Source: Minisyncoccota bacterium (GTDB lineage Bacteria > Patescibacteriota > Minisyncoccia > Phycocordibacterales > BOKC01). Taken from it: a DNA stretch of 64,000 nt. The stretch is from positions 140,551-204,550 of the forward strand of contig CP129473.1 in the NCBI GenBank assembly GCA_030583745.1, read 5' to 3'. Below the pieces are notes generated by a model, which saw nothing but the letters and a program-made list of their open reading frames with translations, did no database searches and was not told where the DNA came from. Of this stretch, positions 8,048-57,638 are shown in pieces (position 1 is the stretch's first letter; each line of letters opens with the position of its first letter). A program made the translations under genes and the position numbers.

Positions 8048-9976
8048 ATGCAAAAAATCAATTTTAAAATAATCGCTCTGGGACTGATTGTCGGTTTAGC
8101 CGGCATTGTCGGAGTAAATTATGTTTTAGCTCAATGGTCAGCGCCAGACGAAGCGCCTCCTGAAGGTAATGTTTTTGTGCCCGTGAATGTAGGGGATAAA
8201 CCTCAAGATAAAAATGGTGTATTTAGAGCAAACGGTTTGCGTTCTTTTGTTGATTTGTATGTAGACGAAAAAGTTGGTATTGGAACCACTAATCCGAATA
8301 CCAAATTACATATAGTTGGCAACGATGGTGTTCAAATTCAGAGAGCCAACAATTCAGGTTTTGCTAATGTTTATTTCAGAACCGGTACAGATGATAACAC
8401 TAGATCATCCATTGGTTTTATACCGGCAGGAGGGGCTAATGATTTAGTTTTTAGAGTAGGTAATTTAGTTGAAAGAATGAGAATCACTTCTGCCGGCAAT
8501 GTTGGAATCGGGACAACAAATCCCGGGGCGAGGTTAGAGGTTAACGGTCAAGTTAAAATTACCGGCGGCTCACCCGGAGCCGGTAGGGTTCTGACTTCCG
8601 ATGCAGCCGGTTTGGCAAGTTGGGCCACTCCTTCCGGTGGATTGCCTGGTGGAAGCTCTAATCAGACACTTCGTCATGACGGTAGTGGCTGGATAGCAAG
8701 CAATAATATAAAAAATAACGGAACAAACGTAAATATAGGTCCTGATGGCCTGACTAGCGATCGTCTTAGGGTTCAGGGACATTTAAATATTTCAGGCAAC
8801 GGAATTTTGAAAACAAACGGAAACAGCGGAACAACAGGTCAAGTCCTTACTCGGACAGATTCAGGGATGGCTTGGGAAACACCGGTTGGTGGTGGCGGTT
8901 CAAATTTCTGGACTCAATCTGGAAATTTACTTTTTCCAAATAATACAGCATGGAATGTTGGTTTAGGAATTAATACTCCAAGTTCAAAATTGCATATAAA
9001 AGATAGCGAAAATATCTTAACTAGAATTGATAGCGCTAATGCAAATCAACAAGCCGCCATATCTTTTGACGATAGGGGATCTTCTAAATTTATAATTGGT
9101 AAGCAGACAAACAACGGCTTCTTTATGTGGAACAATAAAGGTGGAAATCAAGGATCTTTTGATTTTCTGACCTCATCTCCGACTGGTCCCCTGTCTCTGC
9201 GTAGCCAAGGATTACTTTCTTTAAATGCTAATCTAAGTGACGCTGGCCTCCCAGGTATTATATCTTTCAGAACTCAAGACGTAGCTCGTATGGCAATTGG
9301 AGTGGGGGGAGGTTTAGCAATTGGACCTAATCCAGACAGTGTGGATACTACTGGTAGACGTTTATTTGTTTATGGCTCTGGAAACACTGTATTTAGGCAT
9401 GTCGCGGGCGATAGCACGGGAGAAACATCAATTGACCTTGTCACTACGGGGCAAGGTGGTGGTTCCGGACACAATCTAAGTAAAAACTGGTCTATTATAT
9501 CGAGGGGTAATAGCTATATTCCTGCCGGAGAAAGAAATGATCTGTTATTCTCATTTTATGACGGACCTGCTGGCGGTCAATGGACTGAAGGAATGCGTCT
9601 CAAAAGAAACGGAGATCTGCACGATTTAAGGGTGACAGGTGATGTTTATGCTAAAAATTTTAATCAATCCTCTGACGCCAATCTCAAAACTAACATCCAA
9701 AATCTTTCCGACTCGTTGGCAAAAATTATTGAACTTCGGGGCGTAACTTTCAACTGGAAAAATCGGGTTGATGAAAAAGAAAACATCGGCTTCATCGCTC
9801 AAGAAATTGAAAAGATTTTCCCTGAACTAGTTCATGGCGAAGACGGCCAAAAAAGCGTAAATTACGTCTCTTTGGTCCCTGTCCTAGTTGAAGCGGTCAA
9901 AGAGCTTGATGAAAAGAATAAAGAGCTTGAAGCTCGTCTTGAAAAACTGGAAAAAAGATTGGGAATCAGTTTTTAA
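8048..9976 (+). CDS. Secreted fibre/tail-fibre-like protein with a C-terminal intramolecular-chaperone (peptidase S74-like) domain
   Basis: Signal/TM, repeated GIGTTNP..KLH(I/V).G motifs, and a C-terminus NIQNLSDSLAKIIELRGVTFNWK...IGFIAQEIEKIFPELV...VNYVSLVPVLVEAVKEL typical of the endosialidase chaperone domain. Confidence 0.7.
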   Translation: MQKINFKIIALGLIVGLAGIVGVNYVLAQWSAPDEAPPEGNVFVPVNVGDKPQDKNGVFRANGLRSFVDLYVDEKVGIGTTNPNTKLHIVGNDGVQIQRANNSGFANVYFRTGTDDNTRSSIGFIPAGGANDLVFRVGNLVERMRITSAGNVGIGTTNPGARLEVNGQVKITGGSPGAGRVLTSDAAGLASWATPSGGLPGGSSNQTLRHDGSGWIASNNIKNNGTNVNIGPDGLTSDRLRVQGHLNISGNGILKTNGNSGTTGQVLTRTDSGMAWETPVGGGGSNFWTQSGNLLFPNNTAWNVGLGINTPSSKLHIKDSENILTRIDSANANQQAAISFDDRGSSKFIIGKQTNNGFFMWNNKGGNQGSFDFLTSSPTGPLSLRSQGLLSLNANLSDAGLPGIISFRTQDVARMAIGVGGGLAIGPNPDSVDTTGRRLFVYGSGNTVFRHVAGDSTGETSIDLVTTGQGGGSGHNLSKNWSIISRGNSYIPAGERNDLLFSFYDGPAGGQWTEGMRLKRNGDLHDLRVTGDVYAKNFNQSSDANLKTNIQNLSDSLAKIIELRGVTFNWKNRVDEKENIGFIAQEIEKIFPELVHGEDGQKSVNYVSLVPVLVEAVKELDEKNKELEARLEKLEKRLGISF

Positions 9977-16145: not shown

Positions 16146-17939
16146 CTATTCACCGACAAACCCGTGACTTTGTTGTTTCCAGAGGCGGTAATAAAGCCCA
16201 TTTTTTGAAAGTAATTCTTTGTGTTTGCCCTGCTCAACAATTTCGCCGTTTTCCATAACGACTATTCTATCCATTTTTTGTATTGTGCTTAATCTGTGAG
16301 CTATAACAATTGTTGTTCTGTTTTTCATAAGTTTATCAAAAGCGTCTTGGATGTATTTTTCGCTGATAGAATCAAGCGAGCTTGTTGCTTCATCCAAAAT
16401 TAGTATTGGCGCGTCTTTCAGCATGGCTCTTGCGATTGCAACTCTTTGTCTTTCTCCTCCGGAGAGTTTTACCCCTCTTTCGCCAACATAAGTATTGTAG
16501 CCCTTCGGAAATTTATTGATAAATTCATCAGCATGAGATTTTTTCGCCGATTCCTGAATTTCTTCTTCAGTGGCGTCTGTTTTGCTATAAGAAATATTTT
16601 CTTTCAGGGTTCTATGAAAAAGAATTGGTTCTTGCGGAACATAAGCGATTTTTGTTCGCAGGTCATCTTGGGTTATAGAGCTAATGTTTTGTCCATCTAT
16701 GAGCACTTCTCCACTTTCTATGTCGGCGAATCTTAAGATTATTTTAGTGATTGTGCTTTTACCAGCACCTGATGGTCCAACCAAACCGACTTTTTCCCCC
16801 GGCTCAACATTCAAAGAAAAATTTTTGAAGACAGGATTTCGTGTGCTTTTTTCATCAACTTTTTTGTTGTAGTAAAAACTGATATTTTTTATCTCTATTT
16901 TGCCGTTGGAAATAAGGCACTTTTCTGGCTGTATTGGATCTCTGACCTCAAGCGGTTCTTCGAAAATCTCAATCATCTCTTTAGCTTCAGCTAGGGATCT
17001 CATGATTCTTGTGAAATTTCTACCAAGAGTCCACGTGATGTTAAAAGCCGCGATGATGTAAATCTGCATAAGTATTATTGTTCCAGCTGAGACCATCCCG
17101 TTTATCCAGAGATAAATTACAGAGAACATTCCTACAAATTCAAAAATTCCTATAAATAGACCCTGAAACAGAAATTGAAGATTTTGAAAATACCACGCGT
17201 CTCGCCTCTTTTTTTCTTCATCCGCCGTTGTTTCAGCAAAACTCAAAATTTCTTTTTCACTCGCTGAAAATATTTTTACATTTAGTATGTTGGTTATAAC
17301 GTCTGAAAGTCTGGCTGTGACTCTTGAATCTGCTTCAGCCGTTAATATGTCTTTTTTTATTTTAATTCTAATAAAAGGAATTGAAATCGCCACAAATAAA
17401 GTAAACCAAATCAAGAAAATTATTCCGAGCATGGGCGAGAAGTATGTCAGGACAGCAAAAGCAAATACTAGTCCAAGCCCTTTCATCCAAATTGTAAAAA
17501 TTATCTGATCATATATTTCTTCAAATGCCCTCAAATATCTTCTTATTTTTGCCACTAATGACCCTGAAAAATTGCTGGAAAAGAAATGGTATGAGTGCCG
17601 ACTGACTCTGGCGAAAGCGTCGTCCGCTAGGTCTTTTGCTGCTTTGCTTTGAGAGTAGGCGATTGAATAATCTGCAAGTCGAAAAAGCGTGCTGTATAAG
17701 AAAATTACTCCTCCTAGCATAAGTATGGTCATTATGAGCGATCTGGATAGTTCTTCCGAAACTTCACCCAAAGACACGAGATCCATGATTTTTTTGTATA
17801 AAAGGGGAGAAAAAATATCTGTCAAAACTACAGCCGAGCCAAAAAGCGCGAAGGTCAAAATGACCGTCTTTTTGTATCTTTTAATGTGGGGCCAATAGTA
17901 TTTGAATATCAGCTTTACTGAGATATTTTTATTATTCAT
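16146..17939 (-). CDS. ABC transporter permease/ATPase (MsbA-like exporter)
   Basis: Six-TM N-terminal half, Walker A GPSGAGKST, signature LSGGERQR, Walker B ILILDEATS. Confidence 0.9.
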   Translation of the reverse strand: MNNKNISVKLIFKYYWPHIKRYKKTVILTFALFGSAVVLTDIFSPLLYKKIMDLVSLGEVSEELSRSLIMTILMLGGVIFLYSTLFRLADYSIAYSQSKAAKDLADDAFARVSRHSYHFFSSNFSGSLVAKIRRYLRAFEEIYDQIIFTIWMKGLGLVFAFAVLTYFSPMLGIIFLIWFTLFVAISIPFIRIKIKKDILTAEADSRVTARLSDVITNILNVKIFSASEKEILSFAETTADEEKKRRDAWYFQNLQFLFQGLFIGIFEFVGMFSVIYLWINGMVSAGTIILMQIYIIAAFNITWTLGRNFTRIMRSLAEAKEMIEIFEEPLEVRDPIQPEKCLISNGKIEIKNISFYYNKKVDEKSTRNPVFKNFSLNVEPGEKVGLVGPSGAGKSTITKIILRFADIESGEVLIDGQNISSITQDDLRTKIAYVPQEPILFHRTLKENISYSKTDATEEEIQESAKKSHADEFINKFPKGYNTYVGERGVKLSGGERQRVAIARAMLKDAPILILDEATSSLDSISEKYIQDAFDKLMKNRTTIVIAHRLSTIQKMDRIVVMENGEIVEQGKHKELLSKNGLYYRLWKQQSHGFVGE

Positions 17940-19933: not shown

Positions 19934-21016
19934 TCAGTCAGGTATCTTTCCTGACCTCAGCATTTCAATGAACATGTCAGACATGACAACCCCAGTTAGG
20001 AACTCAAGCCAGAGCCACTGCCCGTTGGGATTCAAGTCGACAAAAAACTCTTTCCCGTCCTGATCCACCAAAAAGTCCATTGAGCTGAAGGGAAGGTTGA
20101 AGTGATTAAGCACACCGAGGATTTTATCCCGCATATCTTTGGAGATACTGTAGGGGGTATACTCTACCTTCCCCAGCTCTCCTGACCTGATATCAAGAGG
20201 GCGGCCGCCTTTCATTGTTGCTTTGAAAGCGAAGAGATGCCTCCCGATAGCCACAATACGTAGCTCGTGCAGTACCGATATCTTTTCTTGGAAGATGGTT
20301 GGGCAAACGTAGAGTGAAGGATTTTCAAGGTCGTCCCTTGTAACTTCTTGAGTACGCAAGACATGGTAAGTGTCTTCTGATTCTACAAAGGGCACCTTGA
20401 GTGATTTTACGACCACCCCATTTGCACACTCATGGTAGAATGTTTCAATCAACCGGCGGTCCCTAGTTATGAGTGTCTTCGGTACGTTCAAGCCGACTTC
20501 GTGGGCGACAGAGAGTTGGTTTGGTTTTACTCTGGCTTTGTACAGGAGCCATGGCGCAGTTACCCAAAAGGCGGACCCGAAAGCAAAGGTGATGCTCTTG
20601 ATCCACTCCTTGGTTTCTCCCTTGAAGAATTTCAAACCGACTTCGTCAAGCATCTCCGCCGCCTTCTTATCTGAAGAAGGCCTTCGGTACCAGACAGATC
20701 TAACATCTGTTTCCGTGACAGATTCTTGCTCTCTGCAGTCCAACAAAGTCAGCTGATTGGAGTCCGGTTTGAGACCAATTTCGTATCTGTCCAGTTCGTT
20801 TGTGTTAAACCTGAAGACTTGTACGCCAGTTTCCTGCATTCTTGAGCAGATAAAATCAGCATGGGTGTCGAAGTCGCTTGTGATAACTAAGGTAACGTCT
20901 TTCATTTTTGCACAATCCTTTTTCTTCTGTTTGACGTTCCGTGATGAAATTACCCGAAGATACTTTGAAAGTATCTTCGGGTATGTAGAACGAAGTAGCC
21001 GTTGAAGCTCAGTCAT
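19934..21016 (-). CDS. Microviridin/graspetide-type ATP-grasp ligase (MdnC/MvdD-like)
   Basis: Pre-ATP-grasp N-domain VTLVITSDFDTHADFICSRMQETGVQVFRFNTNEL; ATP-grasp core; start ATG overlaps the precursor stop (TGATG). Confidence 0.7.
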   Translation of the reverse strand: MTELQRLLRSTYPKILSKYLRVISSRNVKQKKKDCAKMKDVTLVITSDFDTHADFICSRMQETGVQVFRFNTNELDRYEIGLKPDSNQLTLLDCREQESVTETDVRSVWYRRPSSDKKAAEMLDEVGLKFFKGETKEWIKSITFAFGSAFWVTAPWLLYKARVKPNQLSVAHEVGLNVPKTLITRDRRLIETFYHECANGVVVKSLKVPFVESEDTYHVLRTQEVTRDDLENPSLYVCPTIFQEKISVLHELRIVAIGRHLFAFKATMKGGRPLDIRSGELGKVEYTPYSISKDMRDKILGVLNHFNLPFSSMDFLVDQDGKEFFVDLNPNGQWLWLEFLTGVVMSDMFIEMLRSGKIPD

Positions 21017-21162
21017 CAATCCGACTGAGCATCGTCTGCCACCGGCGGGGTGCGGCAGTAGGTATCACCACTGCAAACCGCAGAAGCAGAATCAGGTTCC
21101 GGTTGATTTTCGCTTTTCGGGATTTCCAGAGACTTCTCGAGGAGAAATGGTTTGTTTTCCAT
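21016..21162 (-). CDS. Graspetide precursor peptide (48 aa)
   Basis: MENKPFLLEKSLEIPKSENQPEPDSASAVCSGDTYCRTPPVADDAQSD. Leader PFLLEKSL resembles the PFFARFL recognition helix; core rich in Thr/Ser/Asp; RBS aagga. Confidence 0.6.
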   Translation of the reverse strand: MENKPFLLEKSLEIPKSENQPEPDSASAVCSGDTYCRTPPVADDAQSD

Positions 21163-21876: not shown

Positions 21877-22083
21877 GATTTATGATTTTATCATAGAAAA
21901 AGAGCCGCCACCTTATCAACAAACAACTTGGTTTGGAGTTTACACCACCTGAAAGGAGTGATAGAATACAAAAATGCTGAGTTTCGGTCATGGTATTTGG
22001 ATGGAACTGAAGGAAGATAGAATTTTGAATCTTCCAGTGTTTTTAGTAGTTCCAAAAGAATTAAAAATTTTATAAAAGATAAC

Positions 22084-22117
22084 AAAATCCCGTTTTTACG
22101 GGATTTTGTTTTTTTAG
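22084..22117 (+). terminator. Hairpin plus T-run just upstream of the PaaK-like gene
   Basis: aaaatcccgtttttacgggattttgttttttt. Confidence 0.6.
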
Positions 22118-23623
22118 ATGACTAACAGAAAGACAGGTACCGATATAAACAGAGAAATCTTATATATAAATAAGAAAAAAGCTTCTTTCTGGCAAAGTCT
22201 AGGAAGAAGAGAAGTTCTTGCTTTATTCAAGTCAGTTTCTAAGAATGTTCCAGCTTATAGAAAATTTTTAAAAAAATCTAGAATTAGTCCGCAAAAAATT
22301 AAGTCATACAATGATTTTTTGAATATACCGCAAATAAATAAAAAAAATTACATAAGCCAACATCCCATAGAAGATCTTACAAAGAAAGGTTCCTTATCTA
22401 AGCCTTTAATTTTCACTTCAACTTCTGGTTCAACTGGTAAATCTTATTATTTCCACCGTTCTTTCAAGATAGACAAGAATACTTCTATTGCTCACGAGTT
22501 GTTTTTTTTAAATGGAAATTACAAGAAAAACGAGCCAGTGCTAGTTATTGTATGTTTTGGTATGGGCGTTTGGATTGGTGGACTTATTACTTATCAAGCT
22601 TTCAGAATAATGCAAGAAAACGGTTATAATCTTTCTATAATTACTCCTGGCATAAACAAAGAAGAAATTTTTAGAGCACTGAAATCAATAGGGCCATCTT
22701 TTAAAAATATAATTTTAGTCGGTTATCCTCCTTTTATTAAAGATATCGTAGATGAAGCACCTTCTAAGGGTATAAATTGGCAGAATTTTAAAACTAGAAT
22801 TATTTTTGCGGCTGAACCTTTTACAGAAAAATTTAGGGACTATATTGCAAAAAAAGCAGCTGTCCGTAATGTATTTCTTGATACTATGAATATATATGGA
22901 ACTGCGGAGCTAGGAGCAATGTCTTTTGAAACTCCTTTGAGTATAATGATTCGCCGCATTTGTGTGAAAGATGTTAGGTTATTTCACCATATCTTTAGTC
23001 CTATCAATAAAACTCCAACTTTAACTCAATACATACCGTCCTTTATTAATTTTACATCCGATGACGGAAACATTTTGGTTACAGGTGATAACACGATACC
23101 CTTAGTTCAATACGCCTTAGGAGACAGGGGGGGTGTATACTCTTTTAAAGAAGTAATAAAACATTTAAAAGAACTTGGTGTTGATATAAAAAGAGAAGCT
23201 AGAAAAGCGAAAATAGAAAAGGAATTATATGAATTACCTTTCGTATATGTATATGAAAGAGATGATATGTCGACTCATTTTTACGGCCTACAAGTTTATC
23301 CTGAGCCGATAAGAGACACATTGCTTAAACAGCCAGCCTGTGATTATTTAACCGGTAAATTTTCGTTAGAAACTAAATTTGATGCTAGGCAAAATCAATA
23401 TTTTACGGTGCATTTAGAGCTTAGAAATAATCACGGCCTTCCTAATGTAATTAAAAAAGCTGTGTTGAAACTGATCGTTGATAGCTTAGAGAATAAAAAT
23501 TCTGAATACCGGGAATTACATAAATTTTTAGGAAAACGAGCTTTACCCCGTTTAGCTTTCTGGCCAAATGGAGATCCAAATTACTTTAAATCAGGAACCA
23601 AACAAAAATGGGTAAAAAAATAA
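22118..23623 (+). CDS. Adenylate-forming enzyme, PaaK/coenzyme F390 synthetase-like (ANL superfamily)
   Basis: P-loop TSTSGSTGKSYY and A5-like YGTAELG. Confidence 0.65.
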   Translation: MTNRKTGTDINREILYINKKKASFWQSLGRREVLALFKSVSKNVPAYRKFLKKSRISPQKIKSYNDFLNIPQINKKNYISQHPIEDLTKKGSLSKPLIFTSTSGSTGKSYYFHRSFKIDKNTSIAHELFFLNGNYKKNEPVLVIVCFGMGVWIGGLITYQAFRIMQENGYNLSIITPGINKEEIFRALKSIGPSFKNIILVGYPPFIKDIVDEAPSKGINWQNFKTRIIFAAEPFTEKFRDYIAKKAAVRNVFLDTMNIYGTAELGAMSFETPLSIMIRRICVKDVRLFHHIFSPINKTPTLTQYIPSFINFTSDDGNILVTGDNTIPLVQYALGDRGGVYSFKEVIKHLKELGVDIKREARKAKIEKELYELPFVYVYERDDMSTHFYGLQVYPEPIRDTLLKQPACDYLTGKFSLETKFDARQNQYFTVHLELRNNHGLPNVIKKAVLKLIVDSLENKNSEYRELHKFLGKRALPRLAFWPNGDPNYFKSGTKQKWVKK

Positions 23624-24639
23624 ATAGAAAGGAATTTATTTGGCTTGATCGAAATGAAAGCTATTTTTTCCTCAACAGACGAATCCTGAATAAAATAAAG
23701 AAATTTGATAGTTCTATAATAAGTAGATACCCAAGATATGGAGAACTAAAAAAGGTTTTAGCTAAAAGATATAACTCAAATCCAGAAAATATACTTTTAA
23801 CTAACGGCGCCGAGCAATCAATCCGGCTTTTCATTCAAACTTTTTTTAAAAAGGGTGATAAGGTTCTACTTCCAGCTCCGACATTTGTAGTTTTTACTCT
23901 AGCTCTTAAATCAATCGGTATAAAACCAAATGTAATATTTTACAAAGAACTTAATAATAAGTTTATATTTCCTACTGCAGAAGTCATATCTGCGATAGAC
24001 AAAAAAACAAAAGGAATACTGTTATGTAATCCAAATAATCCTTTAGGTTCTAGTATCACACGGAAAGAAATTTTATCAATATTAAATAAAACTAGGAAAT
24101 TTAAAATTCCAGTAGTTATAGATGAAGTTTATTCAGAGTTTTCTGGTTATTCTTCAATTAAGCTTACAGAAAATTATAAAAACTTAATTATTATAAAATC
24201 TTTCTCCAAAGAATTTGCTATGGCGGGTCTGAGGTTAGGATTTTTAGTCGCAGAAAAAGAAATGATAAATAAACTAGAAGAAAAAAGAGACTTACCTTGG
24301 GCGGTAAATCACTTTGCCATCCATACAGCAATGATATTGCTTAGAGAGAGAAAGTATCTCAGGAAAAAAATTAAAGAAGTTTTGAAGATAAAAAAAGAGT
24401 TAGTAAATTTTTTAAGACTTAAAGGTTTGAAATGTTATGAAACTGATACAAATTTTGTGATAATAAAACACAAAAATTATAAAAAGTTACTTAAAAATTT
24501 AGCATTTAAGGGGATATTTCTAAGTGAGACATCTAAGTACGCTTACGGACAAAAATTGTTAAAAGGGACTATTAGAATGGGTGTGCCCTCAAAAGAAGAT
24601 TTTAAAAAGATAAAACAGCGTTTTAGTAAAATTCACTAA
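23608..24639 (+). CDS. PLP-dependent aminotransferase class I/II (HisC-like)
   Basis: SFSKEFAMAGLRLG with the PLP lysine; LCNPNNPLG. Confidence 0.75.
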   Translation: MGKKINRKEFIWLDRNESYFFLNRRILNKIKKFDSSIISRYPRYGELKKVLAKRYNSNPENILLTNGAEQSIRLFIQTFFKKGDKVLLPAPTFVVFTLALKSIGIKPNVIFYKELNNKFIFPTAEVISAIDKKTKGILLCNPNNPLGSSITRKEILSILNKTRKFKIPVVIDEVYSEFSGYSSIKLTENYKNLIIIKSFSKEFAMAGLRLGFLVAEKEMINKLEEKRDLPWAVNHFAIHTAMILLRERKYLRKKIKEVLKIKKELVNFLRLKGLKCYETDTNFVIIKHKNYKKLLKNLAFKGIFLSETSKYAYGQKLLKGTIRMGVPSKEDFKKIKQRFSKIH

Positions 24640-24684
24640 TTTTTAAAATATTTTTCCCTAATCCTTCTACCCAATCTTTTTGAC

Positions 24685-24738
24685 ATGATAAAAACTATTT
24701 TATACTTCCTGAAATTAAATAAATTATGTTTTAATTAA
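24685..24738 (+). CDS. Candidate 17-aa peptide MIKTILYFLKLNKLCFN ending in Asn (MccA-like?)
   Basis: Stop codon 3 nt before the ThiF/MccB-like ATG; the terminal Asn is a hallmark of microcin-C-type precursors; no obvious SD. Confidence 0.25.
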   Translation: MIKTILYFLKLNKLCFN

Positions 24739-24741
24739 AGT

Positions 24742-25800
24742 ATGAATAATAAGCCAGTATTTATAAAATCTCCAAAAGAGCTTGCCGAAATAAACCAGCA
24801 GAAATACAAACCCGTTTTTGTGGATGCTTTTTCAAGGCAAATAAAAGAACTTTTTTTTATTGAAAATCCGAGATTTTCTGTAGAAGACAAAAAAGAAGTA
24901 TATCGGAGTGGGGAATTCAAAGATTTTTTAAAGAAAAAAGAAAAAGATTTTGTTCTTATTTATTTCCCTTGGAGTAATCGTTTGATTAAGTGTGTCAAAG
25001 AAAATGATTATTTCAAACTCAAAACCAACCGCAATAGAGATTTAATAACAGAAAAAGAGCAGAAGAAATTGGCAGATTTTACTGTTGGCGTTGTAGGACT
25101 TTCGGTAGGTGCCAATATGGCAACTGCCTTGATTCACAGTGGTTTCTCTAAAAATATTAAACTCTCTGATTTTGACGAGCTTGATACCACAAACTTAAAC
25201 CGAATTAGGGCAAAGGTTTCAGAAATTGGAGACTCTAAAATTAGCATCGCCAGCCGGCAAATTTTTGAAATTAATCCATACGTTAAGATAAACTCTTTTC
25301 CTAAAGGATTAAATAAAAAAAATCTAAAGAATTTTCTGGCAGGTAATCCGAAACCCAAGCTTGTGTTTGAACTGATTGATGATTTTGAAATGAAGATTTT
25401 ATTAAGAAAAGAAGCTAGGAGATATAAAGTCCCTGTAATTATGCTTACAAGTTTAGGAGACAGCGTTTTAATTGATATAGAGAGGTATGACACAGAGCCG
25501 AAAACAAAATTATTTAATGGAAAAGTAAGTGAAAAAGTTTTAGACAAAATCCTTGCTGGAAGTTTGAGCGAAAAAGAGAAACATCAATGCGCTATAGATA
25601 TCGTTGATGGGAAAAATCTTCCATCAAAAGTCAAAAATTCAATAAACCAAATTGGTAAGACCCTCGCCGGTCGACCTCAACTTATGTCGACTGTAACCGT
25701 CGCTTCCGGTATTGCCGTTTTCCTTGCCCGAAAAATCGCTCTTAACGAGAAACTTAAAAGTGGCAGGAAGCTAGTGAAATTTAATAATTTTATTAAATGA
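24742..25800 (+). CDS. ThiF/MoeB/E1-like adenylyltransferase with a ~110-aa N-terminal extension (MccB-like or TOMM C-protein-like)
   Basis: GVVGLSVGANMATALIHSGF..IKLSDFDELDTTNLNRI ... INPYVKI; no Zn CxxC pairs. Confidence 0.7.
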   Translation: MNNKPVFIKSPKELAEINQQKYKPVFVDAFSRQIKELFFIENPRFSVEDKKEVYRSGEFKDFLKKKEKDFVLIYFPWSNRLIKCVKENDYFKLKTNRNRDLITEKEQKKLADFTVGVVGLSVGANMATALIHSGFSKNIKLSDFDELDTTNLNRIRAKVSEIGDSKISIASRQIFEINPYVKINSFPKGLNKKNLKNFLAGNPKPKLVFELIDDFEMKILLRKEARRYKVPVIMLTSLGDSVLIDIERYDTEPKTKLFNGKVSEKVLDKILAGSLSEKEKHQCAIDIVDGKNLPSKVKNSINQIGKTLAGRPQLMSTVTVASGIAVFLARKIALNEKLKSGRKLVKFNNFIK

Positions 25801-26864
25801 AGGACGTAATCAAAGAAATCCTAACCCTCGCAGTTAATGCCCCCTCCGGCCACAATTCCCAGCCGTGGACGTTTGAGGTGAAAAATAACTCTATTTTCGT
25901 TTATAACGTTCCAGATAAAGATAAAATTCTATTCAACTGGAAGCAGAGGGGATCTATGATTGCTCACGGTGCTTTGATTGAAAATATAGCAATAATCTCT
26001 TCAGAAAAAGGATATCGGGCGGACATAAAAATTCTTCCAAATGAAAAAGAAACCAATTTAACCGCAGAAATAAAACTAGAAAAAAGCTCGGAAGATTGTT
26101 CTTACAGGCATCTTTCTCCCTTCATCTTAAAACGAACCACTAATAGAAGACCTTACGAAATAAAATCTCTTGGAGACACAGATAGGGAGGCGTTAAAGAA
26201 TTTTATGGAAAAACATAATAATTCTGGATATGAAATTCTTTTGACAGAAGACAGGGAGAAAATCAATCAAGTGGTAGGACCTTTTAGTGCCGGAGATAGG
26301 TTACTTTTTGAAAATTTTTACGTTCACAAATCTCTTTTTGATAATGTAAATTGGACACTAAAAGAAGAGCGAGAAAAAAGAGAGGGTTTATATTTAGGAA
26401 CCAAAGAACTTAATTTAGCGGAAAGATTTTTATTTAAATACATAATGAGTAAATGGAGTTTTGTTGAGAATCTAAATAAAATCGGCTTTGCAGAAAAAGC
26501 CGGAGAAAAAAGAGCAGAACTTTACAAAAAATGCTCGGCTATGGGTTTGGTTACAGCTCCCAGTGATTCTCCAAGAGACTTTATAAATTCAGGAAGGGTT
26601 TTAGAAAGATTCTGGCTGACTGTAACATCTCTTGGTTTAAGCTTCCAGCCTGTATCTGTTGGGCTTCTTTATTTAGGACAAAGGTGTAAAATAGAAAAAC
26701 CGGAGGAATTGACACCCGGACAATTTGAATACGTTAGAAAAGCATATGGAATAGTGGAAAATGTGTTTAATGTTACTGATAAGATTCCGACTTTCAGCTT
26801 TCGAATCGGATACGCACCACCACCTTCTGCTAGTTCGCTAAAAAAATTGCCGGAGATTGTATAA
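25797..26864 (+). CDS. Nitroreductase-fold (SagB-type dehydrogenase-like) protein
   Basis: APSGHNSQPW motif; 355 aa two-lobed nitroreductase architecture; start overlaps the ThiF-like stop. Confidence 0.65.
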   Translation: MKDVIKEILTLAVNAPSGHNSQPWTFEVKNNSIFVYNVPDKDKILFNWKQRGSMIAHGALIENIAIISSEKGYRADIKILPNEKETNLTAEIKLEKSSEDCSYRHLSPFILKRTTNRRPYEIKSLGDTDREALKNFMEKHNNSGYEILLTEDREKINQVVGPFSAGDRLLFENFYVHKSLFDNVNWTLKEEREKREGLYLGTKELNLAERFLFKYIMSKWSFVENLNKIGFAEKAGEKRAELYKKCSAMGLVTAPSDSPRDFINSGRVLERFWLTVTSLGLSFQPVSVGLLYLGQRCKIEKPEELTPGQFEYVRKAYGIVENVFNVTDKIPTFSFRIGYAPPPSASSLKKLPEIV

Positions 26865-26871
26865 TTAATTT

Positions 26872-28452
26872 ATGGAAATTTTAGAAAATTTAGATCTGTT
26901 GAGTGTAAGTATTACTACAGCAGCTACACTGGTATTGGGTTTTACTATTTATTTTAGTAATACAAAAAGTGTTACTAATTTTACTTTTCTTATTTTCGCT
27001 GTGATTACTGCGATGTGGAGTATGGCTAACTACTTTCATCATACAATTAATTCGGTACCAATTGCTTTTGCGTTAATCAAATTCGTTATATTTCTGGGTG
27101 TTTGGCATGCCTTCACTTTCTTCCAATTATTTTTTGTATTCCCAAAAGAGAATGTAACTTTCCCAAAAAATTATAAGTACTTAATTATTCCTATAGTTTC
27201 GGTTGCTTCAATTATAAATTTGACCCCGTTAGTATTTAAGGGAGTAGCAGAAGTAATAGACGGGAGAATTTCAAAAATAGAAAATGGTCCAGCTATAGCC
27301 CTTTTCGGCTTATTAATAGTTTCTTTTATAGTAAGCGGTGTATTTTTGTTGATAAAAAGAATTATAACTTCTCAGGGTCGTCTAAAAAAGCAATTTCAGA
27401 CTATTTTATATGGAGTTATTTTAACTTTTATTTTGATCCTTACATTTAATTTTATATTACCGGCATTTTTCAACAACCCTAGTTTTATACCCTTGAGCTC
27501 AATATTTATATTTCCTTTCATTGTTTTTACATCCTATTCAATTCTCAAACATAAATTTTTTAATATCAAAGTAGCGGGAATCAGTTTATTGGTTTTCGCA
27601 CTATCTATTGTTGCTTTTGGAGAAGTTATATTTGCCAGAGAGTTATTTTTGATTGTCTACCGAAGTAGTGTTTTTGTTTTGATTTTGATTTTTGGAATTC
27701 TTTTGATCAAGGGTGTTATGCGGGAGGTTTCCTTGAGAGAACAATTACAGGAAGCTAATAAGGCGCAGGAGAATTTGATTAACTTCATCACCCATCAAAT
27801 TAAGGGCTTTTTGACAAAATCAAGGAATATTTTTGCTGAAATGATGGAGGGGACTTTTGGGCCGATTTCCGGAGATATAAAAAATATTGCCGAGCAAGGG
27901 CTGAAAATAAATACCGATGGCGTTAATACTGTGCAGACAATTTTAAACGCGGCAAATATTCGTACAGGCAAGCTCTCTTACAATATGGCGCCGATAGATT
28001 TGAGAGATATCATCCAAAAATCATTTGAGAAAAATCGCAAGAGCGCCGAGTCAAAAGGTCTTGATTTTGTCTTGAACATTGGCGAGTCGTCAGAATATAA
28101 AATAAAAGGTGACGAGAATCAGCTGTCTGAAGCGTTTTCAAACTTAATAGACAATTCAATAAAATACACACCAAGAGGTCAGGTTAAAGTATCTCTTGTG
28201 AAAAGTGATAGTGCTATAAAATTTTCTATTAAAGACACCGGTATCGGTATTGCACCAGAAGATAAATCAAAACTTTTCACCGAGGGCGGACGCGCGAAAA
28301 ACGCGCTCGAGGTCAACGTTGACTCCACCGGCTTTGGTCTATACATCGTTAAAAATATTATAGAAGCGCATAACGGCCGTGTTTGGGTAGAGTCAGAAGG
28401 GGAGGGTAAAGGCTCGGAATTTATAGCTGAACTGCCTTATAAAGATAGTTGA
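26872..28452 (+). CDS. Multi-TM sensor histidine kinase
   Basis: About 8 TM; H-box FITHQIKGFL; HATPase G-boxes GFGLYIV, GEGKGSEF. Confidence 0.85.
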   Translation: MEILENLDLLSVSITTAATLVLGFTIYFSNTKSVTNFTFLIFAVITAMWSMANYFHHTINSVPIAFALIKFVIFLGVWHAFTFFQLFFVFPKENVTFPKNYKYLIIPIVSVASIINLTPLVFKGVAEVIDGRISKIENGPAIALFGLLIVSFIVSGVFLLIKRIITSQGRLKKQFQTILYGVILTFILILTFNFILPAFFNNPSFIPLSSIFIFPFIVFTSYSILKHKFFNIKVAGISLLVFALSIVAFGEVIFARELFLIVYRSSVFVLILIFGILLIKGVMREVSLREQLQEANKAQENLINFITHQIKGFLTKSRNIFAEMMEGTFGPISGDIKNIAEQGLKINTDGVNTVQTILNAANIRTGKLSYNMAPIDLRDIIQKSFEKNRKSAESKGLDFVLNIGESSEYKIKGDENQLSEAFSNLIDNSIKYTPRGQVKVSLVKSDSAIKFSIKDTGIGIAPEDKSKLFTEGGRAKNALEVNVDSTGFGLYIVKNIIEAHNGRVWVESEGEGKGSEFIAELPYKDS

Positions 28453-28456
28453 AATT

Positions 28457-29968
28457 ATGAATAAATACAGATTTGCGGCAACCGGTTACATAATTCATGA
28501 CAATAAAGTTTTACTAATAAAACACCCGAAGCTTGGAGTTTGGCTACCAGTTGGTGGTAAGGTTGACGTAGGAGAGCATCCTGAAGATTCTTTTATTCGA
28601 GAAGTGAAAGAGGAGGTTGGTCTTAGTGTAGAAATTATAAAGACTTTCGAACATCCGCGTGTAGTTGGTGGCCATCGCTATCTTCAGTTGGAAAAAGTAG
28701 GGGATGGATATCACCTAGATTTTATTTATTACGCAAAGGCGAACTCTAAAAAATTGGTTCTAAATGAAAAAATTAGGGAAGCAAGATGGCTTTCTTTCTC
28801 TGAATTTTTGCAAGATAAAAAAATGTTTTTTGAAGATGTCGTGATTGAACTTGAGAAAATATATGCTCGTTATTGTGATTATGATCCCTTTCAGATTGTT
28901 CGTGCCGAACACAACAATGTTGGACAAATTTTTGATAAAGCTTTTGTAGTCAATCATTCGGATGAAAAAACGGATTATTTTTTAAGAGAAGTTAATCGTT
29001 ATGCAAAGAAGACTTTCTATGTTGAGAAGGAATATTCAGGAAATAAAATTTCAAAAGAAAAAATCACTAACTTTGTAGGGAAACAAAATGTAGTCAATGT
29101 AAAGAATGCTTTAAAAATTCTCGAGACAAGCGATGCAAATGATGTTGTGTTTGATATGTCTGGATTAATATCTGAAAAAATCTACCAAAATTTAAATTGG
29201 AGGGGTTTCTCGATAGAAGATACGGCAAATGGCTTGAACTGGCTCAAGGGTGGCAAGAAAATTTCAAAACCAATATTTTCAATTGCTTACAGTAGGTTGA
29301 AAAAGAGCGTTGAGAATCCTAAAGTTGCGGAATCAATTTTTTCTTCTTTGTTAAATTATTGTTACAAAAATGATAGAAATATCTACGGAATCAATATCCT
29401 GATGATAGGATACGGATCAATAGGTTCTATATTAGTTGAAATGCTTTCGTCGATAACCGAAAACGTTGTAGTCTATGACATTGATTATTCTCAAATATTA
29501 AGAGCAAAGGCCAACAGGTTCAAGGTAATTGATTCTCTAGAAAATATATCTTGTTTTGATATGGTTATATCATCTACTGGAACGCCCGTGGCGCTTGGGG
29601 AAAAAGAGTTAAGAGTTTTGAAAAATGGCGCAATGTTGATCAATTGTTCAACTAAACAATGGGAATTTGATCGTGATTTTATAAACAGACAAGAAAGAAG
29701 AATTGTCGGTGATACAGAGTTTATAACCATTGAAGACAGGCAAATTGAATTGTTCAATTCAGGTTTCCCAATAAATTTTTGGAATTCAGGCGGGACTCAT
29801 TCATCAGCAATATTATCAACCTTTGCTTGTATCCTTGAATCCGCGGTACATATTGAAAAAAGACGCGATATTTTTTTAAAAGCTCACCCCCGGGTTTATG
29901 AGGTGTCGGAAATCCTACCAAAAATAGAAGACAAATATCTAAAATATTCTTTTTTAAAGAACTCGTAG
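28457..29968 (+). CDS. Fusion protein: N-terminal NUDIX hydrolase plus C-terminal adenosylhomocysteinase-like NAD-binding domain
   Basis: Nudix box GGKVDVGEHPEDSFIREVKEEVGL. C-terminal ILMIGYGSIGSILVEML..VVVYDIDY...ISSTGTPVAL resembles the SAHH NAD domain. Confidence 0.55.
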   Translation: MNKYRFAATGYIIHDNKVLLIKHPKLGVWLPVGGKVDVGEHPEDSFIREVKEEVGLSVEIIKTFEHPRVVGGHRYLQLEKVGDGYHLDFIYYAKANSKKLVLNEKIREARWLSFSEFLQDKKMFFEDVVIELEKIYARYCDYDPFQIVRAEHNNVGQIFDKAFVVNHSDEKTDYFLREVNRYAKKTFYVEKEYSGNKISKEKITNFVGKQNVVNVKNALKILETSDANDVVFDMSGLISEKIYQNLNWRGFSIEDTANGLNWLKGGKKISKPIFSIAYSRLKKSVENPKVAESIFSSLLNYCYKNDRNIYGINILMIGYGSIGSILVEMLSSITENVVVYDIDYSQILRAKANRFKVIDSLENISCFDMVISSTGTPVALGEKELRVLKNGAMLINCSTKQWEFDRDFINRQERRIVGDTEFITIEDRQIELFNSGFPINFWNSGGTHSSAILSTFACILESAVHIEKRRDIFLKAHPRVYEVSEILPKIEDKYLKYSFLKNS

Positions 29969-39994: not shown

Positions 39995-40022
39995 TTATTT
40001 GTTATAATATAAAAAGTTGTAA
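39995..40022 (+). promoter_or_regulatory. Strong sigma70-like promoter in AT-rich DNA driving the GC-rich gene
   Basis: TTGATA, 16-nt spacer, TATAAT. Confidence 0.5.
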
Positions 40023-40125
40023 GTTTGTTCTTTGTCGTTGAGTTGTTTTATGAAGAGGGTAGTGTGTTGCTACTCTCATCACCCCCCGTCCTATTTCTTG
40101 GAGGACATACTGAAAGGAGCGAAAA

Positions 40126-40992
40126 ATGTTGGAGATTTTCCGTTTTGACTTGAGAGAGAATCCGAAGACGGGCAAGCCTCAGTGGCAGGCCCGACGGAAA
40201 GGCAGAGACGGCACGACGTGTTATATTGTCCCTGATGAGAGTCCCAGATTCCCCTCGTATGAGCAGGATGTTTGGCTCTGCGAGATCGGGGATCCGGTCT
40301 TCCTGTATCAGGACAAGAAGTCCCGAGTCGTTCAGGTCCGGCTCATCGCGCCGTGGCCGGAGAGGATGAAGCTTCTCTTTGTGCTTGGAGAGCGCGACGA
40401 GAAGCCCTTCTGGAGCGCGTCCGGGCGTGTCGGACCGGTGAATGTCACTTTCGTTGTCCACAAGTACAGCGAGGTGTCGCCTGATGAGACCAGTCCCGTC
40501 TGGAACTGCGGGCTGGATACCTTCATCATGGCCCAGAACCAGTACCGGATCATCGTTCCGGTTTGGCCGGAAGGACCGGTGGAAACCGAGCTCAGGACTC
40601 TTGACTTCACTGAAGACGAGAGCCCTGAAGGACGAGCCCAATTCGCCTGCCAATCGGCAAGCGACGGGGTCACCGTCAGGTATGTGGTTGACCGAGACCA
40701 CTACCTGCGCGTCAAAAACTCTGGCGAGTCCCGCTGGAGTTGTGCCTTCAAGCGGGATCTCTACACAAGCCCACTCTCCCGTGTGATCGCGGTCGTTCCC
40801 GTGTCTCCTGTGCCTCTCACCGCCCGAGGGAAAAGGCGACGGGAGAGACGTGAAGAGAGGGCGATTCGCAAGGCAGCAAGGCTCGAGGCCGAGCGCGAAT
40901 CGGCTCGGAAGCGCGCTGCCGAACGTCTGACGGGTGGTGGCACCCGGCGCTCCAACGGCGGTAAGAACAACAAGAAGGCTGCCACTACCTAA
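40126..40992 (+). CDS. GC-rich hypothetical protein with a basic C-terminal tail
   Basis: RBS gaaaggag; protein-like composition. The antisense ORF 40048..41058 is a GC shadow. Confidence 0.55.
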   Translation: MLEIFRFDLRENPKTGKPQWQARRKGRDGTTCYIVPDESPRFPSYEQDVWLCEIGDPVFLYQDKKSRVVQVRLIAPWPERMKLLFVLGERDEKPFWSASGRVGPVNVTFVVHKYSEVSPDETSPVWNCGLDTFIMAQNQYRIIVPVWPEGPVETELRTLDFTEDESPEGRAQFACQSASDGVTVRYVVDRDHYLRVKNSGESRWSCAFKRDLYTSPLSRVIAVVPVSPVPLTARGKRRRERREERAIRKAARLEAERESARKRAAERLTGGGTRRSNGGKNNKKAATT

Positions 40993-41007
40993 ACCTAACA
41001 ACTCAAT

Positions 41008-41036
41008 ACCGCACCTGCACCCCCGAGCCGTATGGG
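41008..41036 (+). terminator. Rho-independent terminator
   Basis: cacccccgagccgtatgggggtgtttttt. Confidence 0.7.
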
Positions 41037-41170
41037 GGTGTTTTTTGTTGATAAACAAATATCCGAGAGTAGTAACCGCTCTCGGTTTATTTTTTTTTAT
41101 TCTCTGTGGATTTTATTGTTGAAAATAAATAAGATAAGGTATAAAATTCTTTTCCAGGTTAATAGTTCTT

Positions 41171-41584
41171 TTGGTCGGGTGTCCGACCGGCTATTGCCGA
41201 AACCCTCAAAGAAAAGGGGTAATCGTGGAAGAGGAAGTTCCGACAATCAATGGGGCGAGGGACATGGACAAGATCGTGGAGGGAAAGAAGGTCAAGGTCG
41301 TCGGGGTCTGGATCAGAGTCACACCACAGAGTCCCATGACTCTGACTGTGACTGACTCCGCCGGGGAGATCAACTTCATCTGGTCTGATCCATATGTTCA
41401 GCCCACTACTAACATGCCGGGGTGCTGGGAGATGACGGTCAACAGCGAGATGGTGAAACTTGTGGGTTTCTACACCGTTTCTTCGGTTTCTGGGGGGCCG
41501 ATTCTTGAGCCGGAGCGCCCCAAATACTGGGGCAAAAAAGCCGTGAAGATTGACCGTGGGCGCAGTCCGGTTCACCACACCTGA
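41171..41584 (+). CDS. GC-rich hypothetical protein
   Basis: Probable GTG start at 41226 with RBS aaagggg; the antisense ORF is a shadow. Confidence 0.45.
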   Translation: MVGCPTGYCRNPQRKGVIVEEEVPTINGARDMDKIVEGKKVKVVGVWIRVTPQSPMTLTVTDSAGEINFIWSDPYVQPTTNMPGCWEMTVNSEMVKLVGFYTVSSVSGGPILEPERPKYWGKKAVKIDRGRSPVHHT

Positions 41585-41602
41585 AGGAGGCACACACTCA
41601 AA

Positions 41603-56007: not shown

Positions 56008-56286
56008 ATGCGCACAGCAGAAGAAGTCATGATGCGCTGCAAGCTCATCCTCGATCAGCCGGACATCGTCCTTCTGGTCGATAAGAGCAGCAGTCCAACG
56101 GCGGCCTACGACATGGTCATGGACGCAACCCACAACGACGAGACCGCGAAAGCGGCTCGCTGGCTCGGCGTATTGAGAAGGGATTACCCCGATCGCTACG
56201 CCGAAATCACCCACAACACTCTCAGCCACGTTCAGAGGAACACGGCGAGGAAAGGAGAACGGAATGAAAACGACGTATGCAGTTGA
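56008..56286 (+). CDS. Small hypothetical protein (92 aa)
   Basis: RBS aaaggagg upstream of the ATG; overlaps the next gene by 23 nt. Confidence 0.4.
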   Translation: MRTAEEVMMRCKLILDQPDIVLLVDKSSSPTAAYDMVMDATHNDETAKAARWLGVLRRDYPDRYAEITHNTLSHVQRNTARKGERNENDVCS

Positions 56287-57586: not shown

Positions 57587-57638
57587 GTACCACATACGCC
57601 AAGCCAATCACGGCAAGGCATACCAAAAGGAGAACATC

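Follow-up and report, generated by a model that had tools for sequence, protein, structure and literature searches.

A conserved gene cassette of Patescibacteria joins a PaaK-fold ligase to a putative split oxazolone synthetase and a seven-transmembrane histidine kinase

In Pseudoalteromonas rubra, OxzB is a di-domain oxazolone synthetase composed of ThiF and nitroreductase domains and acts on the N-acyl tyrosine supplied by the N-acyltransferase OxzA, and in Mycobacterium tuberculosis TyzB (ThiF) and TyzC (a flavin-dependent oxidase, FDO) work with the acyltransferase TyzA to yield N-acyl tyrazolones. Rv1355c (TrzS) uses ATP to cyclise the N-acyl tryptophan made by TrzA and O2 to desaturate it, TrzAS being Rv1356c/Rv1355c. 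OxzB and TyzBC are experimentally shown synthetases, the substrates of the family are N-acyl Tyr, Phe or Trp, and planctomycete, Thalassotalea and Massilia clusters combine NasY with ThiF and nitroreductase proteins (stieleriacines, thalassotalic acids and kyonggic acids). The authors of the TrzS work pointed out that N-acyl oxazolones resemble signalling molecules and named their physiological role as a major unresolved question. Here we describe a gene cassette in a 64,000-nucleotide (nt) stretch of contig CP129473.1 (positions 140,551 to 204,550, assembly GCA_030583745.1, Minisyncoccota bacterium), the whole of which is called the window below, in which a PaaK-fold ligase and an aminotransferase precede a ThiF-like enzyme, a nitroreductase-fold enzyme and a seven-transmembrane (7TM) histidine kinase. 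From sequence comparisons, we estimate a probability of roughly 0.55 that the cassette is a Patescibacteria-specific pathway to a small oxazolone (azlactone)-type heterocycle derived from an N-acyl amino acid, with the ligase replacing the usual acyltransferase. The genes in question are the following (positions in the window):

22118..23623, + strand: PaaK-fold adenylate-forming ligase, 501 amino acids (aa), identified from its open reading frame (ORF), fold model, invariant motifs and homologues
23608..24639, + strand: HisC-like class I/II pyridoxal phosphate (PLP) aminotransferase, 343 aa, identified from Pfam, NCBIfam and the motif SFSK
24742..25800, + strand: ThiF-like ATP-dependent adenylase/cyclase, predicted equivalent of TyzB, matching the N-terminal half of Rv1355c/TrzS-type proteins
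25797..26864, + strand: nitroreductase-superfamily FDO, predicted equivalent of TyzC, matching the C-terminal half of Rv1355c-type proteins
26872..28452, + strand: histidine kinase with an N-terminal 7TM sensor region (HisKA_7TM, HATPase_c), beginning 7 nt past the nitroreductase gene

The ThiF and nitroreductase ORFs share 4 nt, and their products are, as judged from sequence, the two halves, in split form, of the Rv1355c/OxzB/TyzBC oxazolone synthetase family. On the NCBIfam model NF005901 ('Rv1355c family protein'), the ThiF protein scored 267.6 bits (2.2e-79, model positions 27-338) and the nitroreductase 170 bits (7e-50, positions 374-712), while other ThiF families (ThiF, MoeB, TcdA, E1) gave the window ThiF 74 bits or less; the nitroreductase also scored 182 bits on PRK14851 and 141 bits on the Acg family. 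Compared with an annotated Rv1355c-family fusion protein encoded on a Mycobacterium plasmid, the ThiF protein (32% identity, E 6e-48) and the nitroreductase (22% identity, E 1e-27) each aligned to the expected half. The ThiF motifs GxxGxxxG, DFDELDxxNLNR (DxDxxxxxNLNR) and ELIDD are kept, and the counterparts of TrzS D217, R540 and Q651 are kept in the window within ELIDD, GDR and FQP, an equivalence taken from a consistent numbering offset and not from the M. smegmatis sequence. The nearest solved structures were TcdA for the ThiF protein and MsAcg (2ymv) for the nitroreductase; TcdA is an ATP-dependent oxazolone-forming cyclodehydratase acting on tRNA, and MsAcg was the template used by the TrzS authors. 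A TcdA-like role in tRNA modification was rejected for the window ThiF, which scored 36 bits on TcdA versus 267 bits on the Rv1355c family.

The ligase ORF ends within the start of the aminotransferase ORF, with 16 nt shared. An initial annotation of this DNA had described two overlapping, co-directional genes with characteristic motifs, all of which are present: TSTSGSTGKSYY at aa 100-111 and YGTAELG at aa 260-266 of the ligase, and, in the aminotransferase, SFSK (aa 198-201), which includes the PLP lysine. The ligase further carries YALGDRGG and a C-terminal GTKQKWVKK, and among 21 sequences of its family the residues T100/T102/S103/G104/T106, Y260/G261, G335/D336 and K495, which belong to the adenylation motifs, are invariant. 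By sequence profiles it was hardly recognisable: a Pfam search of the ligase returned zero matches (AMP-binding included), the NCBIfam PaaK model TIGR02155 gave 46.9 bits against a cutoff of 646.3 and covered the N-terminal domain only, and the sequence match in the PDB was a weak one in the N-terminal domain (2y4o, 1e-5). An AlphaFold2 model of the monomer, made with 21 homologues as input, reached a predicted local distance difference test (pLDDT) value of 87.8 and a predicted template modelling (pTM) score of 0.89. Foldseek matched this model to known structures at E values of 1e-20 to 1e-12 overall (PaaK1/2 and BT_0428, ~1e-19; 2-hydroxyisobutyryl-coenzyme A (CoA) ligase, HCL, 1e-14; ClxA, 9s45/9s3l, 1e-12), and with a probability of 1.00 to PaaK, BT_0428, HCL, ClxA and Acs. 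Thus the ligase has the features of its superfamily, namely the two-domain fold, the P-loop, YGxxE, GD and the C-terminal catalytic Lys. ClxA uses ATP to join 3-amino-4-hydroxybenzoic acid (3,4-AHBA) units through amide and ester bonds, and no CoA intermediate has been described for it; the product of NatL2 is an ester, which then rearranges to an amide. Both act just before heterocyclisation. In the monomer model of the window ligase, the conserved GxKQKW tail at the extreme C-terminus has low pLDDT; it might be a cap extension between monomers of the ClxA/NatL2 type, for which the model is suggestive only.

GenBank labels the ligase 'hypothetical protein' (WKZ26632.1, from a Candidatus Paceibacterota metagenome-assembled genome), and JGI labels its homologues 'phenylacetate-CoA ligase'. 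Homologues numbered ~2000 at E <=1e-3 among the candidates scored, the best 120 being full-length with 51-97% identity, and all taxon-named matches were Patescibacteria (Falkow-, Lipton- and Brennerbacteria and 'Patescibacteria group'). When 1.84 billion representatives at 50% identity were searched exhaustively by profile, 728 of them matched at E <=1e-30. The cassette ORFs of the window are real genes and not chance ORFs, and the ligase appears to represent an uncharacterised, Patescibacteria-wide and Pfam-less family of the PaaK fold with a putative role in acid activation and N-acylation.

To describe the gene neighbourhood of this family, one genome per GTDB species was scanned, which gave 270 confirmed loci, of which 80 were kept (up to 21 kb each). 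These cover Harrison-, Lipton-, Brenner-, Kaiser-, Wolfe-, Wildermuth-, Nomura- and Magasanikbacteria, Gracilibacteria, Microgenomates, Paceibacterota and Minisyncoccia. Synteny was assessed by tblastn with the window proteins and by all-against-all clustering of ORFs >=60 aa, and both approaches agree. The four largest ORF families were the ligase (81 loci, including the window), ThiF (72), the nitroreductase (65) and the 7TM kinase (57), and the conserved order is PaaK-like ligase, ThiF, nitroreductase and 7TM kinase, with ThiF and nitroreductase swapped in a minority. Presence was counted in the 52 loci having at least 5.5 kb downstream of the ligase: the ThiF gene adjoins in every one of them (52/52), the nitroreductase and the kinase are each found in 48/52, and all three in 47/52. 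Each gene junction is shorter than 200 nt in 29 such loci, and junctions in the cassette are mostly overlapping or <30 nt. Receiver-only response regulators, one to three in number, often lie upstream or downstream of the cassette (31 loci). The initial annotation had proposed a five-gene operon-like unit outside primary metabolism; a conserved, non-housekeeping unit is indeed what we found, but its conserved core is the ligase, ThiF, the nitroreductase and the 7TM histidine kinase, the last of which had been missed, while the aminotransferase, taken earlier as a fixed member, is not one.

Window-type aminotransferase orthologues occur in 14-16 of ~80 loci, usually directly upstream of the ligase; in L083, the closest available relative (ligase 75% identical), the ligase comes first and the aminotransferase follows, the same order as in the window. 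In 22 loci, the position equivalent to that of the aminotransferase is occupied by a dehydrogenase that belongs to the ELFV family and to its 350-aa Leu/Phe/Val/Trp type; ScyB, a tryptophan dehydrogenase, is its best NCBIfam model (327 bits, below cutoff), against only ~90 bits for glutamate dehydrogenases. A class IV aminotransferase lies by the ligase in one locus and a divergent 456-aa class I/II aminotransferase in another. Altogether, a dehydrogenase or HisC-like aminotransferase stands immediately 5' of the ligase in 33/71 loci with enough upstream sequence. The aminotransferase is therefore an interchangeable accessory module of the cassette. Because the interconversion of an amino acid and a 2-oxo acid is the only reaction that the swapped, non-homologous enzymes have in common, it is this interconversion that would feed the ligase.

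These counts also bear on the idea that the two upstream genes are the housekeeping paaK (phenylacetate catabolism) and hisC (histidine biosynthesis) of the lineage and merely chance neighbours of the ThiF and nitroreductase genes. The window aminotransferase matches Pfam Aminotran_1_2 at 1.9e-44 and has hisC (TIGR01141) as its best NCBIfam model, which together with the JGI label on the ligase homologues would suit such an assignment. However, its 224 bits fall below the hisC cutoff of 276.55 and its 185 bits on the CobD model are below that cutoff as well, just as the ligase falls short of PaaK (46.9 versus 646.3 bits). There are no paa or his genes in the window, and a cob context for the aminotransferase is likewise lacking there. 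The ligase is accompanied by ThiF in 52/52 loci and is even fused to it, and the aminotransferase can be swapped for a dehydrogenase. With both curated cutoffs and gene context against it, the housekeeping assignment, which the initial annotation had itself named as what would overturn its proposal, is scarcely credible.

Among the profile-search matches, four long proteins are full-length fusions with 40-60-aa linkers, as recognised by Pfam and BLAST: P0129 (dehydrogenase-ligase, 847 aa), P0138 (ligase-ThiF, 863 aa), P0212 (ThiF-ligase, 880 aa) and P0216 (dehydrogenase-ligase-ThiF, 1242 aa). Owing to these fusions, the dehydrogenase, ligase and ThiF can be placed in one pathway independently of synteny. 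They also matter for the source of the N-acyl amino acid. Under the classical oxazolone route, the ligase would be an ordinary acyl-/aryl-CoA ligase feeding an N-acyl amino acid synthase encoded elsewhere, with ThiF and the nitroreductase working as in Tyz/Trz. Every described oxazolone pathway uses acyl-CoA and an acyltransferase, the top structural matches of the ligase are bona fide CoA ligases (PaaK1/2, BT_0428, HCL), and an acetyl-CoA synthetase is present in at least one Patescibacteria locus, so that CoA chemistry exists in the group. Against this, the acyltransferase gene is adjacent in known systems, whereas we found no acyltransferase Pfam domain, N-acyl amino acid synthase or GNAT on ORFs >=120 aa in the 64-kb window, and no conserved acyltransferase cluster across the 80 loci of up to 21 kb; moreover, the ligase-ThiF and dehydrogenase-ligase-ThiF fusions suggest that the ligase product passes straight to ThiF. 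An acyltransferase hidden between cassette genes was sought and rejected, the inserts being TrmB regulators, S9 peptidases, a 305-aa protein, GTP cyclohydrolase II-like proteins and ATP-grasp/tetratricopeptide repeat (TPR) genes. We consider the classical route unlikely, although it keeps an appreciable chance.

A peptide product was also considered, in view of the spacer between the aminotransferase and ThiF genes:

24640..24741, + strand: spacer, 102 nt, 19.6% GC, with a TTGACA hexamer at 24680, judged non-coding

The initial annotation had pointed to a small Asn-terminated ORF 45 nt past the aminotransferase gene and had seen the ThiF and nitroreductase proteins as an E1/dehydrogenase pair of the kind found with peptides that are ribosomally synthesised and then modified post-translationally (RiPPs). 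In a RiPP-like pathway in the style of microcin C, the E1-like enzyme would activate the C-terminal Asn of the peptide encoded by the small ORF, and the ligase and aminotransferase would make the attached group. The ORF exists (17 aa, MIKTILYFLKLNKLCFN, 24685-24738, starting 45 nt past the aminotransferase stop), and MccB-type enzymes are members of the ThiF family. However, it lies without a Shine-Dalgarno sequence in the only sizeable spacer, is specific to this spacer of the window, and was left uncalled in GenBank, where protein accessions run consecutively across the spacer. Elsewhere there is usually no room for such an ORF, the gap 5' of ThiF having a median of 8 nt and being <30 nt in 53/67 loci, and neither these 67 gaps nor the clustered ORFs >=60 aa contained a conserved small ORF that could serve as precursor peptide gene; nor is a YcaO present. 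Since the alignment of the window ThiF to the small-molecule Rv1355c family (267 bits versus <=74) spans its N-terminal extension, this extension is a family feature and not an MccB-like peptide clamp. The 17-aa ORF was accordingly judged to be a non-coding chance ORF, the pair is better placed in the split Rv1355c/OxzB/TyzBC family acting on small N-acyl amino acids, and a RiPP-like pathway is very improbable.

For an oxazolone-type product made with the ligase in place of an acyltransferase, we propose the following sequence of reactions. The aminotransferase would interconvert a 2-oxo acid and the corresponding amino acid, which is probably an aromatic or branched-chain one, a step that may be taken elsewhere by the Leu/Phe/Trp-type dehydrogenase or another aminotransferase, and its output could be either an amino acid made from a scavenged 2-oxo acid or a 2-oxo acid used as acyl donor. 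The ligase would then adenylate a carboxylic acid and hand the acyl group to an amino group to give an N-acyl amino acid, standing in for the acyl-CoA-dependent OxzA/TyzA/TrzA/NasY, for which ClxA and NatL2 offer a precedent. By homology to TyzB/TrzS, the ThiF-like enzyme is predicted to adenylate the alpha-carboxylate and cyclise it onto the amide oxygen, and by homology to TyzC/TrzS the nitroreductase-fold flavoenzyme is predicted to desaturate the C-alpha/C-beta bond. The co-transcribed 7TM kinase, with the receiver-only regulators in many loci, may act as a sensor of the product or as a regulator of the operon, as their synteny suggests. Either output of the first step is compatible with the order in which dehydrogenase, ligase and ThiF follow each other in operons and fusions, and aromatic amino acids, as found in known oxazolones, would suit both aminotransferases of the HisC type and Phe/Trp/Leu dehydrogenases. 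The initial annotation had envisaged an acyl or aryl building block that is transaminated and used on a peptide; a block with an amino-group-handling enzyme is compatible with these data, and the peptide target is the part that fell away.

Several observations weigh against this proposal. The ligase has just ~15% identity to any characterised enzyme, and true CoA ligases (PaaK, BT_0428, HCL) outrank ClxA as its solved structural neighbours, because of which its product may simply be acyl-CoA, for use by an acyltransferase with its gene elsewhere. In about half of the loci, neither an aminotransferase nor a dehydrogenase stands beside the ligase, and the kinase is tied to the cassette by synteny alone. 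Many Patescibacteria are thought to be anaerobes, and the FDO step is O2-dependent in TyzC and TrzS. Finally, the two halves of NF005901 sum to ~438 bits versus an equivalog cutoff of 476 for the fused model, and hence the pair counts as a divergent relative rather than an equivalog, and its substrate may differ.

This shortfall from the Rv1355c equivalog cutoff is also in keeping with the same enzymes carrying out other chemistry, in which the ligase would adenylate the 2-oxo acid produced by the dehydrogenase or aminotransferase, or else the carboxylate of an amino acid, and ThiF and the nitroreductase would yield a related but non-oxazolone product such as another heterocycle resembling an azlactone, the amide of a dehydro-amino acid or a molecule akin to a cofactor or signal. 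The order seen in operons and fusions (dehydrogenase or aminotransferase, ligase, ThiF) would suit such a route, and Stieleria-type clusters of ThiF and nitroreductase give dehydrotyrosines and not isolated oxazolones. Nothing specific speaks against it, but it is less parsimonious than the activity of the closest characterised family, and we regard it as distinctly unlikely, with a small chance of being right.

Returning to the oxazolone-type pathway, its new elements would be the PaaK-fold partner, the amino-acid/2-oxo-acid module, the near-obligatory 7TM kinase and the host clade, as the ThiF-nitroreductase chemistry is already known. A literature search for oxazolone and Patescibacteria found no paper containing both, and a second one, on the combination of genes in Patescibacteria, brought up no relevant work. 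Four to six genes in size, the cassette has been retained across many Patescibacteria lineages, Falkowbacteria among them, and because these bacteria have very small genomes and scant biosynthetic capacity, a multi-gene ATP-consuming cassette kept in so many of them is probably important to their lifestyle. The ligase in the acyltransferase's place points to the formation of N-acyl amino acids independently of CoA and, possibly, to a new biocatalyst for amide bonds, and the near-obligatory linkage to the 7TM kinase leads to the testable hypothesis that the products are signals. On a more speculative level, the cassette might be a self-contained signalling circuit of ultra-small episymbiotic bacteria, in which a CoA-free ligase makes N-acyl or N-2-oxoacyl amino acids that become oxazolones, through ThiF and the flavin oxidase, with the 7TM kinase and its receiver-only regulators as receptor for the product or for a host-derived acid precursor; we think this unlikely and give it a modest chance. 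If true, oxazolones would gain a role in cell-cell or host sensing, and the ligases would be a new family of amide-forming enzymes. As for annotation, ~2000 proteins labelled 'hypothetical' or 'phenylacetate-CoA ligase' could receive new names.

The remaining features around the cassette concern its expression and its downstream border:

21939..21967, + strand: promoter-like site 5' of the ligase gene, within the divergent intergenic region; TTTACA-17-TAGAAT plus an upstream TG, 10/12 consensus, weak
22081..22110, + strand: perfect 13-bp GC-cored hairpin followed by a T-run, ending 8 nt 5' of the ligase ATG
28457..29968, + strand: unusual 503-aa fusion protein, Nudix hydrolase domain at the N-terminus, followed by an AdoHcyase-like NAD-binding Rossmann domain, beginning 4 nt past the kinase gene

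Promoter-like sites in the region are no commoner than in shuffled sequence. The leader at 21970-22120 folds with z = -4.55, and the hairpin within it occurs once in the window, has no counterpart in L083 and has no + strand gene upstream of it to terminate; a known riboswitch was rejected at 22081-22110, which matched no Rfam family at gathering or E-value thresholds. The hairpin could be a leader, attenuator or operator, and it is unexplained. The spacer before ThiF is possibly an internal promoter for the ThiF, nitroreductase and kinase genes, and the divergent operon formed by these three genes in L083 fits the AT-rich, TTGACA-bearing spacer of the window. The Nudix/NAD-binding fusion is doubtful as a cassette member, with zero tblastn matches across the 80 loci.

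Several other genes recur in the neighbourhood of the cassette. TrmB-family helix-turn-helix (HTH) regulators are found beside or inside it (L083:12554-13348, L002:11571-12350, L027 and L078), and a Pfam-less protein of 305-318 aa lies between the nitroreductase and kinase genes in 7 loci (L029:13695-14609, L037, L041, L042, L055, L070 and L079). By eye, this ~305-aa insert protein has a Gly-rich LGSGG that recalls S-adenosylmethionine (SAM) methyltransferases, and it may be a candidate tailoring enzyme. Upstream of the cassette in the window, an ATP-grasp 'ribosomal peptide maturase' gene (19934-21162, - strand; TIGR04187, 193 bits; MvdD pre-ATP-grasp domain) is preceded, with a 4-nt overlap, by a 48-aa ORF, MENKPFLLEKSLEIPKSENQPEPDSASAVCSGDTYCRTPPVADDAQSD, the two being a candidate graspetide maturase and precursor, and MvdD-like ATP-grasp genes lie <=10 kb from the cassette in L083, L016, L042 (inside the cassette, with a TPR protein), L068 and L077. 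An ATP-binding cassette (ABC) exporter (ABC_membrane and ABC_tran; 16146-17939, - strand), whose homologues lie <=10 kb from the cassette in 8/80 loci, may be a candidate for export of the cassette product or of the graspetide.

Otherwise, the window has the gene content usual for a small-genome chromosome (SerRS, DprA, Dus, UvrABC, Ddl, TGT and glycogen enzymes). A tandem of three class IIb aminoacyl-tRNA-synthetase paralogues (tRNA-synt_2 plus an OB anticodon-binding domain; 56264-57586, 57339-58946 and 59273-60589) lies in an island of 50-55% GC, compared with ~35% elsewhere, which could reflect horizontal acquisition or an expansion of the AsnRS/AspRS/LysRS type. A second island of 50% GC at 40000-41600 has long ORFs on both strands (40048-41058, - strand; 40126-40992, + strand; 41159-41593 / 41171-41584), with no Pfam match on the long ORFs and no Rfam match in the island. 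At 8048-9976, a 642-aa protein bears at its C-terminus the endosialidase chaperone domain Peptidase_S74, which is known from the tail fibres of phages and from surface fibres that cleave themselves.

Compared with known systems, the cassette shares an E1/ThiF-superfamily enzyme with microcin C (MccA/MccB) and with thiazole/oxazole-modified microcins (TOMMs; C protein and SagB), the latter also having a nitroreductase-fold dehydrogenase; in contrast to both, it has no conserved precursor, YcaO or evidence of a peptide clamp, and its ThiF is placed in the Rv1355c family. With HisC, aromatic aminotransferases and CobD, the window aminotransferase shares the class I/II fold and the SFSK PLP lysine, but it is below the HisC and CobD cutoffs, lacks a his or cob context and is swappable with a Leu/Phe/Trp-type dehydrogenase. 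In Agr/Com-type quorum-sensing loci, signal synthase genes stand beside a polytopic membrane histidine kinase, and the combination of biosynthetic genes, multi-pass kinase and response regulators is similar by analogy only, with no sequence relationship. PaaK1/PaaK2 of Burkholderia cenocepacia, BT_0428 and 2-hydroxyisobutyryl-CoA ligase have the same two-domain fold (E 7e-20, TM ~0.6), P-loop, YGxxE, GD and C-terminal Lys as the window ligase, which is however only 13-17% identical to them, is ~60-70 residues longer and has no paa context. ClxA and NatL2, from the pathways to the benzoxazoles closoxazole and nataxazole, likewise have a PaaK-like fold and precede a heterocycle-forming enzyme, and these two hand the ATP-activated acid directly to a nucleophile, either an amine or a hydroxyl; their identity to the window ligase is 13-14%, and their heterocycle-forming partner is an amidohydrolase where the cassette has ThiF. 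The closest resemblance, that to the OxzAB, TyzACB, TrzAS and NasY systems, lies in a ThiF cyclase and a nitroreductase-superfamily oxidase, encoded by two adjacent genes as TyzB/TyzC are, in a tight operon, with the ATP-site Asp and the FDO Arg and Gln kept and with full-length homology to the Rv1355c family. Scoring below the equivalog cutoff of that family, the Patescibacteria cassette differs from these systems in its host and in having a PaaK-fold ligase, sometimes fused to ThiF, where they have an N-acyl amino acid synthase, often together with a dehydrogenase or aminotransferase and nearly always with a 7TM kinase.

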